From NCBI GenBank assembly GCA_038117045.1, contig JAYOFE010000005.1, positions 53,078-117,077 on the forward strand: 64,000 nucleotides of DNA, read 5' to 3'. The notes under the pieces were generated by a model. That model saw only the letters and a program-made list of their open reading frames with translations, did no database searches and had not been told where the DNA came from. Below, one piece after another: positions 4,864 to 47,028 of this stretch (the stretch's first letter is position 1; every line of letters begins with the position of its first letter). Position numbers and translations under genes: made by a program. Source of the DNA: Alphaproteobacteria bacterium. GTDB taxonomy: Bacteria; Pseudomonadota; Alphaproteobacteria; UBA6615.

Positions 4864-5664
4864 TTAAGGCGTTTGTTTCGCAAACCAGTCGTTGAGCGTC
4901 TGCATCGATTTCTCCGCCTCTTCCATCAGGAAGAAGTGGCTCGACTTCTCGAACACCACCGTTTCGCTGTTGGCAATGCCGTTGGACAGTTCATCCGTTC
5001 CCTGCATGGAACAGATCGGGTCAACGCGTCCGGCCATGATCAGAGTAGGGCAGGCGATTTCACCCAAACGCCCTGAGGTATCGTGGCTGAGCGCCGTGTG
5101 GTTGAGGTTCACATAGGAGACCTTGCTGCGCGCCTCGTTGCCCACCAGTGCCTCGATGCGGGCCATTGCCTCGGGGTTGTCGTTGTAAAAAGCGGGTGCG
5201 ACAAACATATGTGCCGAGTGGCGTGCCCAGTCAGCCCAGTTGTCCCGCCACTCCAGGACTTCGCGCATGTTCTCAAGGACGCGCTTACCTATCGGGTCCA
5301 CCTTGGCTGTGGAAGCTGCCAGGACAAGTGACTGGATACGGTCAGGGGCGCGCAAGGCCATGTGTTGTCCGATCAAGCCACCCAGTGAGCGGCCGACCAC
5401 GTGTGCTTTATCGATCTCCAGATTGTCCATAAGGGCGAGCATGGTGTCGGCAAGTTCTTCAGTCGTGCAGGGGGCATCGACCGGGGAACTCTCGCCGGAA
5501 CCCGGGTTGTCCATTGCGACCACCCGATAGCGGTTCTTGAACGTCTCGATCTGGGGCAGCCAGGCGGTGTGATCGCCGGCAAGGCCATGAATCAGGATAA
5601 CCGGGAATCCGTCACCGGCCTCGATATAGTTCACGTCGAAACGGCCGCAATTCACTTTCGGCAT
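4864..5664 (-). CDS. Alpha/beta hydrolase fold protein (copy 1 of a tandem pair)
   Basis: HGLAGDH, nucleophile-elbow GRSLGG, ~267 aa from MPKVNCGRFDVNYIEAGDG. It is about 65% identical to the downstream paralog. Confidence 0.75.
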   Translation of the reverse strand: MPKVNCGRFDVNYIEAGDGFPVILIHGLAGDHTAWLPQIETFKNRYRVVAMDNPGSGESSPVDAPCTTEELADTMLALMDNLEIDKAHVVGRSLGGLIGQHMALRAPDRIQSLVLAASTAKVDPIGKRVLENMREVLEWRDNWADWARHSAHMFVAPAFYNDNPEAMARIEALVGNEARSKVSYVNLNHTALSHDTSGRLGEIACPTLIMAGRVDPICSMQGTDELSNGIANSETVVFEKSSHFFLMEEAEKSMQTLNDWFAKQTP

Positions 5665-5686
5665 GCTTTGTCTCTCTGTTTGTGAT

Positions 5687-6487
5687 TCAGGCTGCGTGCT
5701 TTTCAAACCAGCTTTCAAGCGTGGACATGGCTTTCGCCGCTTCCTCCATGAGGAAGAAGTGGCTCGACTTCTCGAAGATCTCCAGCTCTGCGTTCGGCAG
5801 TCGTTCCATCATCCAGTTCTGCGCTGTCATTGAGCAGATCGGGTCAAAGCGCCCACCCATAACGAGCGTCGGTGTCCGAATATCTGACAGGCGGTCGAGA
5901 ACGTCATGCTCAAGACATGCCGTTGCAAGATTGTTGTATGAGGTCATGTCGCGCCCCTCGTCACTGACCAGTGCCGTTATGCGCGACATCAGTTCGGGGT
6001 TCTCGTTGTAGAAGGCAGGTGCAACAAACAGATAGACCGCGTGAGGGGCCCATTCCGCCCAGTTGCCGCGCCATTTGAGCAGCTGTTGAAGGTTGGTGAT
6101 CACCTGCGCTCCGACAGCATCAAGACGAGCAAAGGAGGCTGCCATCGCGAGGGATTGGAGGCGTTCAGGCGCTTTCAGCGCCATGTGCTGCGCCACAGCA
6201 CCTCCCATGGAACGACCGACCACATGGGCCTTCTCGATGCCAAGCTTGTCCATCAGGCCCAATGTTGCATCGGCTAGATCGGCAGTGCCAGCCGGTTGGC
6301 TAACAGGCGAGCTGTCGCCAGATCCGGGGTTGTCGAAAGCGATAACCCGATACCGTTCCTTCCATGCGGCCAATTGGGGGAGCCACGCAGTGTGGTCGCC
6401 CGCTAGGCCGTGTATCAGGAGAATGGGAAATCCTTCGCCCTCTTCGACGTAGTTGATGTCAAAACGCCCGGTGTTCACAACTGTCAT
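5687..6487 (-). CDS. Alpha/beta hydrolase fold protein (copy 2 of a tandem pair)
   Basis: MTVVNTGRFDINYVEEGEGFPILLIHGLAGDH...GRSMGG. AAGGAGAG RBS sits 8 nt upstream. Confidence 0.8.
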   Translation of the reverse strand: MTVVNTGRFDINYVEEGEGFPILLIHGLAGDHTAWLPQLAAWKERYRVIAFDNPGSGDSSPVSQPAGTADLADATLGLMDKLGIEKAHVVGRSMGGAVAQHMALKAPERLQSLAMAASFARLDAVGAQVITNLQQLLKWRGNWAEWAPHAVYLFVAPAFYNENPELMSRITALVSDEGRDMTSYNNLATACLEHDVLDRLSDIRTPTLVMGGRFDPICSMTAQNWMMERLPNAELEIFEKSSHFFLMEEAAKAMSTLESWFEKHAA

Positions 6488-24776: not shown

Positions 24777-25712
24777 TTATTTGGCCTTTGATGGGCCTTG
24801 AGACAGGGTTTTCCAGCGCTTCATGATCGCGGCCAGTTCCTCGCGCAGAAGCTGGATGAACCGTTCCGCGGCGCCGGTCAACGGGGTGCGGACCTGGCGG
24901 ACCAGATAGTACTCGATCTCGGCGCGCGGGCTGACTATGGGGTTGATGACCAGCGCACCTGATGATGCTTCATCGATCACCGATGCAACCGCCGTCAGGG
25001 TCGACCATCCTGAGTGGCGGACATACTCCAGCGTGGTGTTCAGGCCGTCGGATTCGATGCTGGCGGCGACCTCGACTTCTGCGCGGGCCAGATGCGTGTC
25101 GATGATCGAGCGGATCGCATGACGCCGTGTCGGCAGGACAAGGCGCAGCGGCGGCAAGTCCTTCAGCCGCAGCCGTTCCAGCGGGGGCAGTCCGGATCCG
25201 GGGCCGGACACGAGCGCCATTTCGTGCTGCGCCAGCAGGGTGGCCTCGATGCCCTCGTGGCTGACGGCGCTGGTGACCACGGCGAAATCCAGCTCACCGG
25301 CTGCGACGCGTTCCGTCAGCGTGCCGCCATAGGCCTCGTCGAGGGTCAGGTCGACATTCGGGTGTGCTTCCACAAACCGGGACAGCGCGGCGGGCAGTGC
25401 ACTGCGGGAGACCGAGGGCACCGTGCCGATGGTGAGTGCGCCCGTCACGTCGCTCGACAGGCCGCGCAAGGCGTGCCCGGTCTCGGCCACGGCATTCAGG
25501 ATCGTCAGGCTGCGCGCGTACAGGCGCTTGCCAGCCACCGTGGGCTCCACGCCGCGCCGGCTTCGGGTGAACAGGGGAACCCCGAACTCGTCCTCAAGGT
25601 TGCGGATCTGCACGGATAGGCCGGGCTGGGTGCAGTTTTCCCGCCTTGCGGCGCGGGAGAAGCTGCCTTCCTCGTACACGGCGACGAATTGTTCGAGCTG
25701 ACGAAGGTCCAT
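24777..25712 (-). CDS. LysR family transcriptional regulator
   Basis: N-terminal HTH MDLRQLEQFVAVYEEGSFSRAARRENCTQPGLSVQIRNLE. Confidence 0.85.
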   Translation of the reverse strand: MDLRQLEQFVAVYEEGSFSRAARRENCTQPGLSVQIRNLEDEFGVPLFTRSRRGVEPTVAGKRLYARSLTILNAVAETGHALRGLSSDVTGALTIGTVPSVSRSALPAALSRFVEAHPNVDLTLDEAYGGTLTERVAAGELDFAVVTSAVSHEGIEATLLAQHEMALVSGPGSGLPPLERLRLKDLPPLRLVLPTRRHAIRSIIDTHLARAEVEVAASIESDGLNTTLEYVRHSGWSTLTAVASVIDEASSGALVINPIVSPRAEIEYYLVRQVRTPLTGAAERFIQLLREELAAIMKRWKTLSQGPSKAK

Positions 25713-25757
25713 GACCGGACTATAAGGCGAAGTTATCGCTTTGCGCAGTCGTGATAA

Positions 25758-26696
25758 TCAGGCGGCCACATCCGGCGCGCCGGCGATCACCGCGGCCCAT
25801 GCGGCCGCCGTATGACGGAGCGCTTCCTCCAGTCGGACGACAAGTTCGCGGGCGGCACGTGACAGCGGGCGTTGGGTCTGGTGGATGAGGTAGTAGTCGA
25901 AGGGCGTCTGCCGGCCGAGCAGGGGATTGACGACAAGTTTCCCGCTATCGAGGTCGCTGACGATGGTCGTGACCGGGAAAATGCCGGAAAAGTCTGAGTT
26001 ACGGATGAACTCGAGGGTCCCGAACAGGCCGTCGATCTCGATCACCCGGGCAACCTGGATGTTGCCCATGCTGATGTAGCGCTCAAGCAGGGTGCGAAGG
26101 CTGTGATGCGACGACGGCATCACAAGCTTGATCGGCGGCAGGCTCTGCAAGCGCACAGGCTCGAGATGGGTGAGGCCGGTCTTCTTGCCGGAAATCATGG
26201 CGAGTGGCTCTGACGACAGGACACGCATTTCCAGCCCGTCATGTTGCGGCGGTTCCGTCACCACAGCGAAGTCCAGTTCCCCCGATACCACCCAGTCAGT
26301 GAGCGTGCCGCTAAAGGCCTCGACGACCCGGATATCGACATTGGGCATGGCTTCGGTGAAACCCGGCAGCAGGTCCGCCAGCACGCCCTTGGTGATGGTG
26401 GGGATCAGCCCTACCTCGAGCGCGCCGGATATGCCGCGCACAAATTCGTGCATGTTCTGGGCCGCGTGCTGTACGTCCCCGAGGATGCGTCGCGAATCTT
26501 CGTAGAAACGGTCGCCAGCGGGGGTGGGGCGTACGCCGCGGGCGTGACGCTCGAACAGGGCGACCCCAAGCGACTGCTCGAGGTTCTTGATTTGCAGGCT
26601 CAGGCTGGGTTGGGCTGCGTTCAGACGATCGGCAGCGGCGTTGATGCTGCCCTCCTCATAGACGGCCACAAAGGTACGGATTTGCTTGAGATCCAT
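25758..26696 (-). CDS. LysR family transcriptional regulator (tandem paralog)
   Basis: MDLKQIRTFVAVYEEGSINAAADRLNAAQPSLSLQIKNLE. Collinear with the adjacent LysR. Confidence 0.85.
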   Translation of the reverse strand: MDLKQIRTFVAVYEEGSINAAADRLNAAQPSLSLQIKNLEQSLGVALFERHARGVRPTPAGDRFYEDSRRILGDVQHAAQNMHEFVRGISGALEVGLIPTITKGVLADLLPGFTEAMPNVDIRVVEAFSGTLTDWVVSGELDFAVVTEPPQHDGLEMRVLSSEPLAMISGKKTGLTHLEPVRLQSLPPIKLVMPSSHHSLRTLLERYISMGNIQVARVIEIDGLFGTLEFIRNSDFSGIFPVTTIVSDLDSGKLVVNPLLGRQTPFDYYLIHQTQRPLSRAARELVVRLEEALRHTAAAWAAVIAGAPDVAA

Positions 26697-26725
26697 TAGC
26701 CAAAACCAAGATATAACAATTTCTG

Positions 26726-26749
26726 ATAGAAAGCATTGTAACTTGCTAT
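26726..26749. promoter_or_regulatory. Candidate LysR-type binding dyad in the divergent promoter
   Basis: ATAGAAAG-N8-CTTGCTAT imperfect dyad, T-N11-A style, between the LysR and LLM genes. Confidence 0.3.
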
Positions 26750-26818
26750 TTGTCGGTATGGCTACCGCTCTTTAGGTTTGCCGCCAATGAATTACGCCTA
26801 GACCGAAAGGAGCCAGCA

Positions 26819-34878: not shown

Positions 34879-35775
34879 ATGAGTCTCGAGAACATGAAGG
34901 TCGGATGGATCGGCGCGGGCAAGATGGGCGCTCCGATGAGCCGAAACGTGCTGGCGACGGGCGTCAGCCTGTCTGTCTTTGACCCGGTGGCGGTGAACAT
35001 GGAGTCCGTCGTGGATGCGGGTGCGCGCGCAGCAAGTTCGAATGCCGAACTGGTGTCCGGGGCCGATATCGTGTTCTCGATGATCCCCAATGATGCCGTC
35101 CTGCGGGCGATCACTATCGGCGATGACGGTGTGATCCCGGTGATGAAGCCGGGAAGCATTTTCGTGGATATGAGCACGGTGTCTCCCGAGACCTCGATCG
35201 AGGTGGCTGAGGCGGCGGCGACGGCGGGCATCGCCTATCTGCGTGCGCCCGTCTCGGGAAGCACGGCGCTTGCCGAGGCCGGGACGCTCACGGTGATGGT
35301 GTCCGGCCCGCGGCAGGCCGCCGACACATGTGCCCTCCTGTTCGATGCCATGGGCGCGACGACGTTCTATCTGGGAGAGGACGAACAGGCGCGCTACCTG
35401 AAGCTGGTCGTGAACCTGCTGGTTGGCACGACCGGCGCCGTTCTTGCCGAGGCGCTGACGCTGGGCCGCAAAGGCGGCCTCGACTGGCAGCAGATGCTGG
35501 ACGTGATCGGCTCCAGCGCCGCCGCGTCACCCTATATCAAGTACAACCTGGAGCCGTTGAAGGCGCGCGATTTCACGCCGCTGTTCACGACCGAGCAGAT
35601 GGTCAAGGATTCGCGGCTGATCTGCGGAGCCGGGGCGGGGGTGGACGTGCCGATGCCCATCGGCAACGCGATGCTCCAGACCTTCGAGGATACGGTCGCA
35701 GCCGGCTACGGGCAGGAGAACCTGACTGCCGCGATCAAGCTGATCGAGGGCAAGGCCGGCCTCGACGACCTTTAG
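34879..35775 (+). CDS. NAD(P)-dependent oxidoreductase, 3-hydroxyisobutyrate dehydrogenase / 6-PGDH NAD-binding family
   Basis: MKVGWIGAGKMGAPM N-terminus. 298 aa. Confidence 0.8.
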   Translation: MSLENMKVGWIGAGKMGAPMSRNVLATGVSLSVFDPVAVNMESVVDAGARAASSNAELVSGADIVFSMIPNDAVLRAITIGDDGVIPVMKPGSIFVDMSTVSPETSIEVAEAAATAGIAYLRAPVSGSTALAEAGTLTVMVSGPRQAADTCALLFDAMGATTFYLGEDEQARYLKLVVNLLVGTTGAVLAEALTLGRKGGLDWQQMLDVIGSSAAASPYIKYNLEPLKARDFTPLFTTEQMVKDSRLICGAGAGVDVPMPIGNAMLQTFEDTVAAGYGQENLTAAIKLIEGKAGLDDL

Positions 35776-35783
35776 TCCGCTGC

Positions 35784-36791
35784 CTAGCTGGTACCGGCGT
35801 AGCCGTAGGACAGCCGGAACATCTCGTTCATGTGCTCCGCGGTCGTGCACGGTTCGAACTTCGCGGGCTGGTCGTCGCCCACACAGGTCGGGACGGGTTC
35901 GATCAGCGCGTCGAAGCGCGGTGCGTAGAAATAGGGGATCGAGTAGCGCTCCGCATTGTCGGTACCATTCAGCACCCGGTGCATGGTCGAGCGGTAGACG
36001 CCGTTGGTCCACCGGGTCATCAGGTCGCCCAGGTTGACCACGAATGTGTCCGGGATGGGCGTGGCCGCAACCCATTCGTCGGCCGCGTTACGGACTTCCA
36101 GTCCACCGATGTCGTCCTGTGCGAGTAGCGTGATGCCGCCCCAGTCTGTGTGCGCGCCCGCGCCAAGCTAGTTGAATTCGGACGTCTCCGGTTGTGGCGG
36201 ATAGCGCAGGATGCGCAGCACGGCGCCCGGCCAGTCATGGTATCCGGCGAACCAGTTGCTCTCGAGATCGAGGGACAGCGCGATCAGCGTCAGCAAATGG
36301 TCGCTCAGCTTCCGCATCTCAGTCTGGTAGGCGATCATCTGGTCCCGGAAGCCGGGGATCGACGCTGGCCACTGGTTATGGCCGATGCCCCTGACATGCC
36401 GCTTCGCGAAAGCGTGGTCGTCGGGGACTTCCAGCCCGCAGTAATAGCTTTCCTTCAGGTCCGGCGGGGACTTCTCTGCATCGAGATCCTGGCTGTCGAG
36501 CTGCTGCTCGGCGATGGGCTCGTAACCCGCTGTTGTGGGCGACTTGCGCATGTGGATCGCCATCTTCTCGTCCATGGGCAAGGCGAAGAAGCGCCTGGCC
36601 CACTCGAACTGGTTCGAGACCAGGTCGTGGGACACGCCATGGTTGGAGACGTAGAAGAAACCGATGTTCCGGCAGGCTTCGCGAATCTGTCCGGCGATGT
36701 TCGGATATGCCGCCGGATCGGAACCGGGGCCGCCCTTCAGGTCGATGACCGGAACGGAATCCAGCGTAACGGGTGGCGAATATATAAGCAT
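35784..36791 (-). pseudogene. 2OG-Fe(II) oxygenase (isopenicillin-N-synthase-like) interrupted by a single in-frame amber codon
   Basis: One minus-strand frame reads ...RILRYPPQPETSEFN then TAG (36168-36170), then LGAGAHTDWGGITLLAQDDIGGLEV ... NLGDLMTRWTNGVYRSTMHRV. The HxD ... H facial triad and RxS motif are intact on both sides of the stop. The ORF track splits it into 36168..36872 and 35784..36041. Confidence 0.7.
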
Positions 36792-36908
36792 CGCGGCGCT
36801 CCTTTGGGCTGCCTGGCCGGAACAGGCCCGCCGAAACCCGCGGAAACGCGGGTCCGGCGTCCTGGCTTGCACCTGACCCTGCAGCTAGCGTGCCACGATG
36901 GCGCGCAA

Positions 36909-37247
36909 CTAGAGCGCGGCGGATCCGGTCTCGCCGGTGCGCACGCGCACCGCGGATTCAAGGTTGAGCACGAAGATCTTGCCGTCACCGATCTTCTCGG
37001 TGTTGGCCGACGTGCGGATCGCTTCGACGGCGGCGTCGACGGCAGAATCGTCGACGGCAATCTCGACCTTCACCTTGGGGATGAAGCTCACCTGGTACTC
37101 CGCGCCGCGGTAGATCTCGGTCTGGCCCTTCTGGCGGCCATATCCCTTGACCTCGCTGGCCGTCATGCCCTCGATGCCGACACCGGCAAGGGCTTCGCGC
37201 ACGTCGTCCAGCTTGTGCGGCTTGATGATGGCGATAATAAATTTCAT
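36909..37247 (-). CDS. glnK: P-II nitrogen regulatory protein (GlnK/GlnB family)
   Basis: MKFIIAIIKPHKLDDVREAL... with T-loop GYGRQKGQTEIYRGAEY. 112 aa. Confidence 0.85.
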   Translation of the reverse strand: MKFIIAIIKPHKLDDVREALAGVGIEGMTASEVKGYGRQKGQTEIYRGAEYQVSFIPKVKVEIAVDDSAVDAAVEAIRTSANTEKIGDGKIFVLNLESAVRVRTGETGSAAL

Positions 37248-37325: not shown

Positions 37326-38537
37326 TTACATATTGTGGTAGCCGCGTTCGCCATGCATGGCGAGATCGAGACCCTGGGCTTCCGTGTCTTCGTCGACCCG
37401 GAACTTGAAGAACATCTTCAGGACCGTTGCGATGACGAAGGTCAGGACCGCCGACCACACCGCGACAATCGCAATGCCCGTCAACTGGACACCGAGCTGG
37501 CTTCCCGTATCCATGCCGTCCGCGAAACCGTTGCCGCCTAGCGAGGTCGCCACGAAGAACGAGACCAGGATGGTGCCCAGCGCGCCGCCGATACCATGGA
37601 CCGCGAACACGTCGAGGGAGTCGTCGATCTTCAGGCGCTGCTTCACGAACTGCGTGACCGTGTAGCAGACGACGCCGCCGGCAAGACCCAGAACCAGACC
37701 GCCGATGGGGCCGACCGAACCCGATGCAGGCGTGATCGTTGCGAGGCCCGCGACCATGCCGGTCACCGCACCGACAAGGCTGGCCTTGCGGTAGCGGATA
37801 AGCTCCATCACCGACCACGCCACTGTGCCCGCGGCTGCGGAGATGTGGGTGACGGTCATGGCCATACCGGCCGCACCGTCGGCAGCCAGTGCCGAGCCGG
37901 CGTTGAAGCCGAACCAGCCGACCCATAGCATCGATGCGCCGATCATGGTCAGTCCGGGCGCATGCGGCGGCTGTATGTCGTGCGGGAAGCCGCGACGGCG
38001 GCCGAGCATGATGGCCAGCACCAGCGCGGACACACCTGCCGTCACATGGACGACGACACCGCCCGCGAAGTCCAGCAGGCCCATCTCAGCGAGGAAGCCT
38101 CCACCCCAGACCCAGTGCACGACGGGGGAATAGACGATGAGCACCCAGATGAGCGAGAACGCGACGACGAACCCGAAATGGATGCGCTCCACGAACGCGC
38201 CCACGATCAGTGCGGGCGTGATGATCGCGAAGGTCATCTGGAACATGAAAAACAGGCTCTCGGGGATGGTGCCGGCTTCAGAATCAAAGCCTACGCCCGA
38301 CAGGAACAGTTTTCCAAATCCGCCCCACCATGCGTTGCCGTCGCCGAAGGCGATGGAATAGGCGGCGAAAAACCAGATAAGTGAGACTGTCGCGGCGATC
38401 GCGAAGCAGTTCATAAGGACCGACAGCACATTCTGTGCCCGCACCAGGCCCGCATAAAACAATGCGAGGCCGGGCAGGGTCATGAAGAGAACTAGCGCCG
38501 TCGAGGTTAGAATCCAGGCCGTATCGGCTCCGTTCAT
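37326..38537 (-). CDS. amtB: Ammonium transporter (Amt family)
   Basis: MNGADTAWILTSTALVLFMTLPGLALFYAGLVRAQN, 11 TM-like segments. GGAGG RBS 7 nt upstream of the ATG at 38537. Confidence 0.85.
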   Translation of the reverse strand: MNGADTAWILTSTALVLFMTLPGLALFYAGLVRAQNVLSVLMNCFAIAATVSLIWFFAAYSIAFGDGNAWWGGFGKLFLSGVGFDSEAGTIPESLFFMFQMTFAIITPALIVGAFVERIHFGFVVAFSLIWVLIVYSPVVHWVWGGGFLAEMGLLDFAGGVVVHVTAGVSALVLAIMLGRRRGFPHDIQPPHAPGLTMIGASMLWVGWFGFNAGSALAADGAAGMAMTVTHISAAAGTVAWSVMELIRYRKASLVGAVTGMVAGLATITPASGSVGPIGGLVLGLAGGVVCYTVTQFVKQRLKIDDSLDVFAVHGIGGALGTILVSFFVATSLGGNGFADGMDTGSQLGVQLTGIAIVAVWSAVLTFVIATVLKMFFKFRVDEDTEAQGLDLAMHGERGYHNM

Positions 38538-43764: not shown

Positions 43765-43914
43765 CTGTTTTCGACTCCAATCGACGCATTCAGGTCATTC
43801 GTAAACGATTGCAATCTTGCAATCCGGAATGCGTGCGACCATAACCGAGGCCAACGCGGGTTGTAAGACCGGCAAGATCAACCTTCACGACATGCCAAAG
43901 GCGAGGATTACCAC

Positions 43915-44913
43915 ATGGCGAAAAAGGCGACGGCGAAGAAGAAAACCGCCGGCAAGAAGAAGCTCCTGACCAAGGCCGATGTGCTGCGCAAGTGCAAGCA
44001 GCTCAACAACTGGGGCAAGTGGGGCAAGGACGACCAGCTTGGCGTGTTGAACTACATAACCCCGGAAGATGTTGTTGAGGCCTCAAAGCTGATCCAGAAG
44101 GGCAAGGTTTTCCGCCTGGGTCTGAACCTCGACGAGAAGGGCCCGCAGAACGGACTGTTCGGCGGCCGCTGGAACCCGATGCACCAGATGCTGGCGACCG
44201 GCACCGATGCCGTCCAGGGTATCCAGGAGCCGCTGGTCGGCATGCGCTACGCCGACGACGCCATCAACCTGCCGACCCAGTGTGCGACCCAGTGGGACGC
44301 GCTGGCCCATGTCTTTGAAGGCGACAAGATGTGGAACGGCTATGACGCGACGCTGGTCGACGTGCGCGGCGCCCACAAGAACGGCATCGAGCACTTCGCC
44401 GACAAGATGGTCGGCCGCGGCGTGCTGTTGGACGTCGCCCGCTACAAGCGCAAGAAGCGCCTTGCCGATGGCGAGGAGATCACGATCGAGGATCTCGAGG
44501 CGACCGCCAAGAAGCAGGGCGTCGAAGTGCGCCGTGGCGACTTCGTGCTGGTCAACACCGGCCAGATGGCTGACTGCCTCGACAAGGGCGACTGGGGTGG
44601 ATACGCCGGTGGCGATGCGCCGGGCCTGGCCTTCGAGACCGTGGACTGGATTCACAAGAAGGAAATCGCAGGCATCTGCTCAGACACCTGGGGCATCGAG
44701 GTTCGCCCGAACCGCAGCGTCCCGGGCATCAACCAGCCCTGGCACTGGGTGACGATCCCGCATATTGGCATCGTCCACGGCGAGATCTGGTACCTGCGCG
44801 AGCTGGTCGAGGACTGCAAGGAAGACGGCCGTTACGAGTTCTTCCTCTGCGCCCCGCCGCTGGTCATCACCCGCGGCACGGGTTCGCCGATCAATCCGCA
44901 GGCGATCAAGTAG
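43915..44913 (+). CDS. Cyclase family protein (PF04199-like; kynurenine formamidase/isatin hydrolase superfamily), copy 1, with Lys/Ala-rich N-terminal tail
   Basis: Core region ...NLPTQCATQWDALAHVF...DVARY... . N-terminus MAKKATAKKKTAGKKKLLTK is absent from the two paralogs. Confidence 0.7.
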   Translation: MAKKATAKKKTAGKKKLLTKADVLRKCKQLNNWGKWGKDDQLGVLNYITPEDVVEASKLIQKGKVFRLGLNLDEKGPQNGLFGGRWNPMHQMLATGTDAVQGIQEPLVGMRYADDAINLPTQCATQWDALAHVFEGDKMWNGYDATLVDVRGAHKNGIEHFADKMVGRGVLLDVARYKRKKRLADGEEITIEDLEATAKKQGVEVRRGDFVLVNTGQMADCLDKGDWGGYAGGDAPGLAFETVDWIHKKEIAGICSDTWGIEVRPNRSVPGINQPWHWVTIPHIGIVHGEIWYLRELVEDCKEDGRYEFFLCAPPLVITRGTGSPINPQAIK

Positions 44914-45021
44914 CGCTTCTGCGTCATTCGACGTTAGTATCGACGGCGCCGTCCCGATGGGATGGCGCCGTTTCGATTCAAGTGTGCCGGAAAGGCACCG
45001 TTCTGGGGAGAACGCAAGAAA

Positions 45022-45987
45022 ATGCCACGCAGATACGATGAGGTGTCGCTGACCATGGCCGATCTCGAGGTCATGGCCGAGAAATGCTCGAACTGGGGCC
45101 GCTGGGGCCCCGACGACGAGATCGGGACCCTGAATTTCATCGGGTCCGAGGAGCTGAAGCATGCCGCGAACATGGTGAAGCAGGGCAAGTCGATCTCGCT
45201 TGGGCTCGACTTCAACCAGGAAGGCCCGCAGACCGGCCGGTTCCGCCGTTTCAACCCGGTCCACTCCATGCTGGCGACCGGCACCGATGCGTGCGCGGGC
45301 AAGCACACCCAGCCCAACATCCAGTACGCCGACGACATGGTGACGATGCCGCTGCAGTGCGGCACCCAGTGGGACGCGCTGAGCCACATCTTCAACGACG
45401 GCAAAATGTGGAACGGCTACGACGCCTCGCTGGTCGATGCGAACGGCGCGAAGAAGAACGGCATCGAGAAGGTGAAGGCCAAGACGGTCGGGCGCGGCAT
45501 CCTGCTGGATATCGCGCGCTGGGCCGGAAAGGACTCACTCGACGACGGCACGGCGATTACCTGCGACGATCTTGAGAAATGCGCCGCCGACCAGGGTGTC
45601 GAAGTGCGCCGCGGTGACATCGTCGTGGTGCGCACCGGCCACATGGAACGTTGCCTGGCAAAGGGTGACTGGACGGGATACTCCGGTGGCGATTCGCCGG
45701 GCATGGCCTTCGAGACGGCGGAGTGGGCGTTCGAGAAGGAGATTGCCGCAGTCTGCACCGACACCTGGGGTTGCGAGGTGCGGCCGAACGAGATCGCCGA
45801 GGCATTCCAGCCCTGGCACTGGGTGGTCATCCCGAAGATGGGGCTCACACTGGGCGAGATTTTTTATCTCAAGGACATCGGTGCCGATTGCGCGGATGAC
45901 GGCGTGTACGAGTTCCTGTTCTGCGCGCCGCCGCTGCCGATCACGGGTGCCGTCGGTTCGCCGATCAACCCCATCGCGCTGAAATAG
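45022..45987 (+). CDS. Cyclase family protein, copy 2
   Basis: MPRRYDEVSLTMADLEVMAEKCSNWGRWGPDDE ... MPLQCGTQWDALSHIF. Start chosen by alignment with copy 3. GGGGAG RBS upstream. Confidence 0.75.
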   Translation: MPRRYDEVSLTMADLEVMAEKCSNWGRWGPDDEIGTLNFIGSEELKHAANMVKQGKSISLGLDFNQEGPQTGRFRRFNPVHSMLATGTDACAGKHTQPNIQYADDMVTMPLQCGTQWDALSHIFNDGKMWNGYDASLVDANGAKKNGIEKVKAKTVGRGILLDIARWAGKDSLDDGTAITCDDLEKCAADQGVEVRRGDIVVVRTGHMERCLAKGDWTGYSGGDSPGMAFETAEWAFEKEIAAVCTDTWGCEVRPNEIAEAFQPWHWVVIPKMGLTLGEIFYLKDIGADCADDGVYEFLFCAPPLPITGAVGSPINPIALK

Positions 45988-46044
45988 CCTTAGACAAGCA
46001 AACAACTGGCGACGAACGCCGGATCATAAGAGAGGAAAAGACAG

Positions 46045-47028
46045 ATGCATCGCTACGACGACCCGGCCTACCGGTTTGACATGGACCTGATCAAGGAAAA
46101 GTCCGAGCGCAACAAGAACTGGGGGAAATGGGGACCTGACGACGAGTGGGGCACCATCAATTATGTGGGCGATGAAGAGCGCAAGGCGGCAGCTGGGCTC
46201 GTCAAGAAGGGCCAGGTCTTCTCGCTCGGCCTGAACTTCGACAGCAACGGACCGCAGCGCGGCCTGTTCGGTGGACGCTGGAATCCGATCCACACCATGC
46301 TCGCGACGGGTACGGATGCGGTTGCCGGAAAACAGACGGTTCCGGGGAAGAAGTACGCGAGCCAGTACGCCGACGATGCGGTCTCTTTGCCGCTGCAGTG
46401 CGGCACCCAGTGGGACGCTCTGGGCCATGTCTTTAACAGTGACAAGATGTGGAACGGCTATGACGCGACTTTGGTGGGCGCGAATGGTGCGGAGAAAAAC
46501 GCCATCCACAAGATGCGCGACAAGATGGTCGGCCGCGGCATCCTGCTCGACATTGCGCGCTGGGCCGGCGTCGACTCCCTGGATGACGGCACGGCCATCG
46601 ATGCCGACGACCTGAACCAGTGCGCGAAGGACCAGGGTGTCGAGATTCGCCGTGGCGACTTCGTGATCTACCGCACGGGCCACATGGAGCGCTGCCTCGC
46701 GGCGGGCGAGTGGGGCGGGTATGCCGGCGGCGATGCGCCGGGCGTGTCGTTCCATACCTGTGACTGGATGCGCGACATGGAGATTGCCGCGATCTGCGCC
46801 GATACGTGGGGCTGTGAGGTCATCCCGAACGAGACGGATGATGTGTTCCAGCCCTGGCACTGGATCGTGATCCCACAGATCGGCATCACCATGGGCGAGA
46901 TCTTCTACCTGAAGGATCTCGCCAACGATTGTGCGGAGGACAAGGTGTACGAGTTCATGTTCGTCGCACCGCCGCTCCCGATTACCAAGGGCGTCGGTTC
47001 CCCGATCAATCCGCAGGCGATCAAGTAA
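46045..47028 (+). CDS. Cyclase family protein, copy 3
   Basis: MHRYDDPAYRFDMDLIKEKSERNKNWGKWGPDDE ... LPLQCGTQWDALGHVF. AGAGAGGAAAAG RBS. Confidence 0.75.
   Translation: MHRYDDPAYRFDMDLIKEKSERNKNWGKWGPDDEWGTINYVGDEERKAAAGLVKKGQVFSLGLNFDSNGPQRGLFGGRWNPIHTMLATGTDAVAGKQTVPGKKYASQYADDAVSLPLQCGTQWDALGHVFNSDKMWNGYDATLVGANGAEKNAIHKMRDKMVGRGILLDIARWAGVDSLDDGTAIDADDLNQCAKDQGVEIRRGDFVIYRTGHMERCLAAGEWGGYAGGDAPGVSFHTCDWMRDMEIAAICADTWGCEVIPNETDDVFQPWHWIVIPQIGITMGEIFYLKDLANDCAEDKVYEFMFVAPPLPITKGVGSPINPQAIK

Follow-up and report, generated by a model that had tools for sequence, protein, structure and literature searches.

Within the 64-kb stretch of DNA analysed here (the window), which belongs to an uncultured alphaproteobacterium, the gene for an oxygenase of the IPNS-like 2OG/Fe(II) family is interrupted by a single TAG codon, which raises the question of whether the gene has been lost, whether the codon is an error in the sequence, or whether it is translated. 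A preliminary description of the locus, made from the sequence alone, had named recent pseudogenization, a sequencing error, and programmed amber suppression as possible explanations. The first of these is well supported, i.e. the closest intact relative carries CAG at the position of the stop, and the downstream codons and expression signals are undecayed. The locus is very probably a young, lineage-specific nonsense pseudogene, or loss-of-function allele, of the oxygenase gene. Direct observations are the lesion and its direction, its recurrence in separate read sets, the removal of the catalytic residues, and the intact state of the neighbouring genes; that full-length protein is absent is inferred.

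The disrupted frame and its ancestral codon

The disrupted frame (35784-36791, minus strand) comprises 335 codons and a terminal TAG. In the translation of the minus strand from 36791 to 35784, codon 208 (TAG, 36170-36168) was the only internal stop, and there were no frameshifts. When the frame was read through this stop, Pfam identified a DIOX_N domain at residues 13-143 (E 1e-31, 110 bits) and a 2OG-FeII_Oxy domain at residues 191-291 (E 9e-26, 90.7 bits), which exceed the gathering cut-offs of 27.3 and 23 bits, respectively. The second match spans the stop and, together with the translation, confirms the preliminary description of one in-frame TAG (36168-36170) in an otherwise unbroken frame.

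The stop separates a 207-codon N-terminal fragment (36171-36791, minus strand), which encodes DIOX_N and the first part of the jelly-roll but none of the metal or 2OG ligands, from 127 codons on its 3' side (35787-36167, minus strand), which encode H214, D216, H271, R282, and S284. These residues constitute the HxD...H triad (H214-T-D216 and H271) and the RxS motif (R282-Y-S284), both of which are present and invariant in the alignment. Their conservation had been recognized in the preliminary description, but the motifs do not flank the stop, as was stated there; all five residues are located downstream of it. The catalytic residues of the oxygenase are encoded, yet beyond the translated part. 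By sequence, the gene belongs to the IPNS-like 2OG/Fe(II) oxygenase family in every respect except the uninterrupted single-chain frame of ~330-340 aa that characterizes the family, which is broken here by the TAG at codon 208. NCBIfam returned no family for the protein.

The best matches among solved structures were 9OVH (E 4e-64) and 6JYV (E 2e-56). The former is Anc357, a laboratory reconstruction of an ancestral EFE-like protein, and the latter is PaIPNS of Pseudomonas aeruginosa PAO1, which has no known function according to its authors and does not bind ACV (PMC12329707). Both proteins consist of DIOX_N and a jelly-roll, as does the window oxygenase, and the three have in common the HxD...H and RxS motifs and a Gln preceding G-x-G-x-HTD; unlike PaIPNS and Anc357, the window gene is truncated. 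Inference of the substrate from these structures failed: neither match provides one, because the former is a reconstructed ancestor and the latter is a protein of no known function.

The column of the stop is occupied by Gln in all 24 aligned homologues (the nearest ones plus some of lower similarity), within the motif N-Q-[IL]-G-A-G-A-H-T-D-W, and the same Gln is kept in the alignments of PDB entries 9ovh and 6jyv. The preliminary description had proposed an orthologue comparison at this position and had expected Q, W, or Y; the comparison yielded Q in 24 of 24 cases, and neither W nor Y. The closest intact relative is L084, assembled by Logan from run SRR33139899; over 3823 bp aligned without gaps, it shares 97.62% nucleotide identity with the window, and it contains an intact oxygenase gene of 335 codons. 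Codon 208 is CAG in L084 and also in L003, a JGI contig whose oxygenase orthologue is 88% identical. Because the closest intact relative (97.6% nucleotide identity) has CAG, the lesion is read from these alignments as one CAG-to-TAG transition, i.e. C>T on the coding strand and G>A at 36170 on the plus strand.

At the protein level, the window oxygenase shares 88% identity with intact P0001 and ~98% with intact P0131. The homologue search returned >4,000 matches; among the 120 matches listed, all are single chains of 328-383 aa except P0027 (207 aa), which is the window's own truncated product and is on record from NCBI and Logan. The TAG was found in the window allele alone, and relatives at 98% to 52% protein identity carry Gln.

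Gene neighbourhood and expression signals

According to Pfam, the gene order around the locus is CoA-transferase (-), nitroreductase (+), IclR (-), intradiol dioxygenase (+), HIBADH-like (+), oxygenase (-), P-II (-), AmtB (-), MOFRL (+), acyl-CoA dehydrogenase (+), and TetR (+). Directly upstream of the oxygenase gene is an intact glnK-type P-II gene (36909-37247, minus strand; PF00543), which matches its orthologue on contig L085 over the full length of 112 aa, and 5' of this gene is an intact AmtB-family ammonium transporter gene (37326-38537, minus strand; PF00909) with a full-length 403-aa match. On the other side, the gene for a HIBADH-like NAD-binding dehydrogenase (34879-35775, plus strand) is convergent, and its stop is located 8 nt from that of the oxygenase gene. 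The oxygenase gene is outside the aromatic-catabolic transcription unit, because it is convergent to this unit and follows amtB-glnK. Its assignment to a PcaR/intradiol dioxygenase/HIBADH unit in the preliminary description was correct as to adjacency but not as to membership, given the convergent orientation and the strand shared with amtB and glnK. No gene follows the oxygenase gene on its strand before the convergent neighbour, whose stop is 8 nt away, and the premature stop therefore exerts no polarity on other genes.

The block of MOFRL, AmtB, P-II, oxygenase, HIBADH, intradiol dioxygenase, and IclR genes was found at every locus whose oxygenase is at least 72% identical (L003-L007, L054, and L084-L088), as far as the contigs reach, and was absent around oxygenase homologues at 60% identity or less.

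The stop of the P-II gene and the ATG of the oxygenase gene are 117 nt apart, and this spacer contains an intact sigma54-type -24/-12 box, TGGCACGCTAGCTGCA (36880-36895, minus strand), from which the oxygenase gene is putatively transcribed. It has the form TGGCAC-N5-CTGCA with the consensus GG-N10-GC spacing, and TGGCAC-N5-YTGC has no other exact match in the 64 kb. In 10 clade loci, the box is a conserved island within spacers that are otherwise highly divergent. The predicted box and the amtB-glnK neighbours suggest nitrogen-regulated (RpoN-dependent) expression of the oxygenase, and the ancestral gene, located 3' of amtB-glnK, would probably have been transcribed from its own sigma54-type promoter. 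An AAGGAG ribosome-binding site (36798-36803, minus strand), 6 nt 5' of the ATG, is also intact. Scans for sigma70 promoters and intrinsic terminators around the oxygenase gene gave no signal that exceeded the shuffled background.

The leader also contains, 3' of the sigma54-like box, a short GC hairpin, CCCGCG-TTTC-CGCGGG, followed by TTTCGG (36825-36855, minus strand). The nearest relatives (L084, L003, L085, and L087) have this hairpin too, and the more distant spacers align unreliably in this region. The terminator scan did not call this hairpin.

Elsewhere in the window, two gaps in coding density (4.9-6.5 kb and 50.6-52.1 kb) were considered as further pseudogenes and rejected, as they contain intact genes of lower GC3. 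Two paralogous ORFs (284 and 266 aa) in tandem at 4864-6487 (minus strand), which are clearly similar to each other and have a GC3 below that of their neighbours, look by eye like alpha/beta-hydrolases. Three tandem paralogous ORFs at 43867-47028 (plus strand) have PF04199 (cyclase family) genes as their counterparts in L085 and match one another at ~69-72% nucleotide identity. Two adjacent paralogous regulator genes at 24777-26771 (minus strand) share a frame, with only a TGA and a short spacer between them, and their N-termini look LysR-like by eye.

Consequence, age, and recurrence of the lesion

In the proposed course of events, a C>T transition turned the conserved Gln208 codon CAG into TAG; ribosomes would stop after residue 207, and the Fe(II) triad and R282/S284 would be lost. 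The 207-aa product is predicted to be incapable of catalysis, because H214, D216, H271, R282, and S284 are all missing. The first in-frame restart after the stop is a GTG at 36041 (codon 251), past the HxD motif, and a product restarted there would be without H214 and D216.

Relative to L003, dN/dS is 0.11 before the stop (codons 1-207) and 0.08 beyond it (codons 209-335), and seven synonymous changes and one missense change relative to L084 were found after the stop. When changes were polarized with two outgroups, the window branch had six synonymous and four missense changes in addition to the stop, and the L084 branch had nine synonymous changes and one missense change; these counts lean to relaxed constraint in the window lineage, at numbers too small for significance. 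Decay is not visible in the codons after the stop, and their low dN/dS would fit continued translation and a very recent lesion equally. Because the promoter-like box, the ribosome-binding site, and the downstream codons are all without decay, the lesion appears to be recent, which fits an age younger than the ~2.4% divergence from L084.

Features of this kind are well known and common, and the locus is an ordinary young pseudogene rather than a recoding signal. Recent unitary nonsense pseudogenes of bacteria likewise have an intact frame with one stop that is one transition away from a conserved ancestral codon, intact orthologues in close relatives, and undecayed regulatory signals and downstream codons. 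Nothing essential differs in the window oxygenase, except that the gene has been inactivated a second time, independently, in a sister lineage.

In L085, L086, and L087, which derive from three JGI metagenomes, the orthologous oxygenase gene (L085 10001-11013, L086 10001-11013, and L087 3294-4306) contains a 1-nt deletion near codon 127 (CACCCCTTC -> CA-TCCTTC), which splits it into ORFs of 151 and 186 aa; one haplotype among the three differs at two further sites. The 151-aa and 186-aa proteins from these contigs are included in the orthologue's 90% cluster, and the 151-aa frameshift product is on record from ENA. An intact allele coexists in the sister population (L003, and P0121 on 13 contigs), and the gene is also intact in L004-L007, L084, and L088. 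Since the sister lineage has broken the oxygenase gene by a different lesion while the neighbouring genes stay intact, the gene seems to be dispensable in this clade.

Such recurrence might also mean that loss of the enzyme is advantageous and that the nonsense allele was selected rather than having arisen by neutral decay. Two independent lesions, the nonsense codon and the deletion in L085-L087, have affected one gene while the other 18 genes of the block are intact in both lineages, a coincidence with p ~0.05 if a lesion is equally likely in any of ~19 genes, and the frameshift allele is shared by three JGI metagenomes. However, the events are only two, intact alleles persist in the sister population and in the other loci listed above, and a gene that is merely dispensable would fit the pattern equally well. 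We therefore regard selected loss as rather unlikely. More doubtful still is the proposal that a leaky UAG keeps a down-tuned but functional enzyme, or that repeated knock-outs of a nitrogen-linked, 2OG-consuming oxygenase are adaptive in a TAG-preferring clade.

Amber decoding, assembly error, and split products

Decoding of the UAG by a suppressor tRNA, as pyrrolysine, or by an efficient near-cognate Gln-tRNA would allow a full-length, active enzyme still to be made. The 127 intact downstream codons with their low dN/dS are consistent with such decoding. When UAG is read through by a near-cognate tRNA, the residue inserted is commonly Gln, which here would restore the ancestral residue, and the base following the stop is C, a reported weak termination context in Escherichia coli. 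Basal near-cognate readthrough of this kind, which may occur at a low level, would be leakiness, not a programmed feature. Against decoding, the stop is not conserved, codon 208 being CAG in the relative with 97.6% nucleotide identity and in all other orthologues; genuine genes of the window and of the clade end in TAG more often than in either other stop codon; and other in-frame TAGs were not found in the window. A general suppressor would be costly, because TAG ends so many genuine genes. With systems of programmed UAG decoding, i.e. pyrrolysine and natural amber suppressors, the locus has in common only an in-frame UAG inside a conserved enzyme gene; unlike in those systems, the stop is unconserved among orthologues, and TAG is preferred as a terminator rather than depleted. 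The amber suppression considered in the preliminary description is thus left without support, and we judge decoding of this UAG to be very improbable.

TAG ends 30 of the 58 crudely called segments of the window (52%; about 29 of 57 without the oxygenase), 9 of the 18 window genes whose ends were verified by orthology, and 8 of the 19 JGI-called genes in L085. Among bacterial stop codons, TAG is normally the least used, and so high a frequency is unusual. The TAG share of terminators is 39% in the clade loci (L003-L007, L054, and L085) versus 21% in a set of 75 distant loci with comparable GC content. Genome-wide recoding of TAG, raised by the excess of TAG-terminated segments and by 10 same-frame adjacent ORF pairs, was considered and rejected: the pairs proved to be separate genes with their own starts, and their ends were confirmed by orthologues. 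Nine of the 10 pairs are covered by seven translated stretches, the tenth being the oxygenase gene itself. No tRNA genes were detected in the 64-kb window by ARAGORN and no matches by Rfam, so that a suppressor tRNA or structured RNA near the stop was also rejected; suppressor or pyl components were not seen in the window either.

The smallest artefact possible, a one-base substitution, would suffice to produce the TAG if the true genome had CAG and thus an intact gene. The sequence apparently comes from a draft or metagenome-derived assembly, with a contig of 181 kb, and the exact repaired (Q208) protein is absent from the collection of 15 billion proteins, which also contains nothing else that bears on the true allele. 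However, Logan contigs L001 and L002 (~1.54 kb each), from runs SRR26337561 and SRR26337560, respectively, are 100% identical to the window from 35597 onward, including the TAG. These contigs were assembled separately for each run, from reads possibly shared with the NCBI assembly, and the same TAG-bearing contig was reported in one further sample. Since two separately assembled runs carry the identical TAG, an assembly slip appears unlikely. In addition, the consensus does not look generally error-prone: all 18 genes flanking the orthologue on the 20-kb syntenic contig L085 align over their full length to the window, with no stops or frameshifts. The sequencing error suggested in the preliminary description has accordingly a very low probability.

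It is hardly conceivable that the 207-aa N-terminal piece and a restarted C-terminal piece work together as a split enzyme: an 85-aa ORF that begins with this GTG (36041) and matches 2OG-FeII_Oxy is indeed predicted by gene callers, but residues 208-250, including two of the three iron ligands (H214 and D216), are in neither piece, the codon-251 restart lying beyond them, and the intact homologues listed are all single chains.

Public gene calls (Logan and NCBI-derived) split the pseudogene into P0027 (207 aa, 36168-36791, minus strand) and P0135 (85 aa, 35784-36041, minus strand). The locus is best annotated as a pseudogene and not as two short genes of 207 and 85 aa, as is done by automatic callers, whose split entries add fragments to protein catalogues and inflate them. 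The oxygenase should not be counted in the metabolic potential of this organism. The recurrent inactivation in the sister lineage is a by-product of modest value, which suggests that the gene is dispensable, and the sigma54-type box and the linkage to amtB-glnK point to nitrogen-regulated expression of this subfamily of IPNS-like oxygenases.
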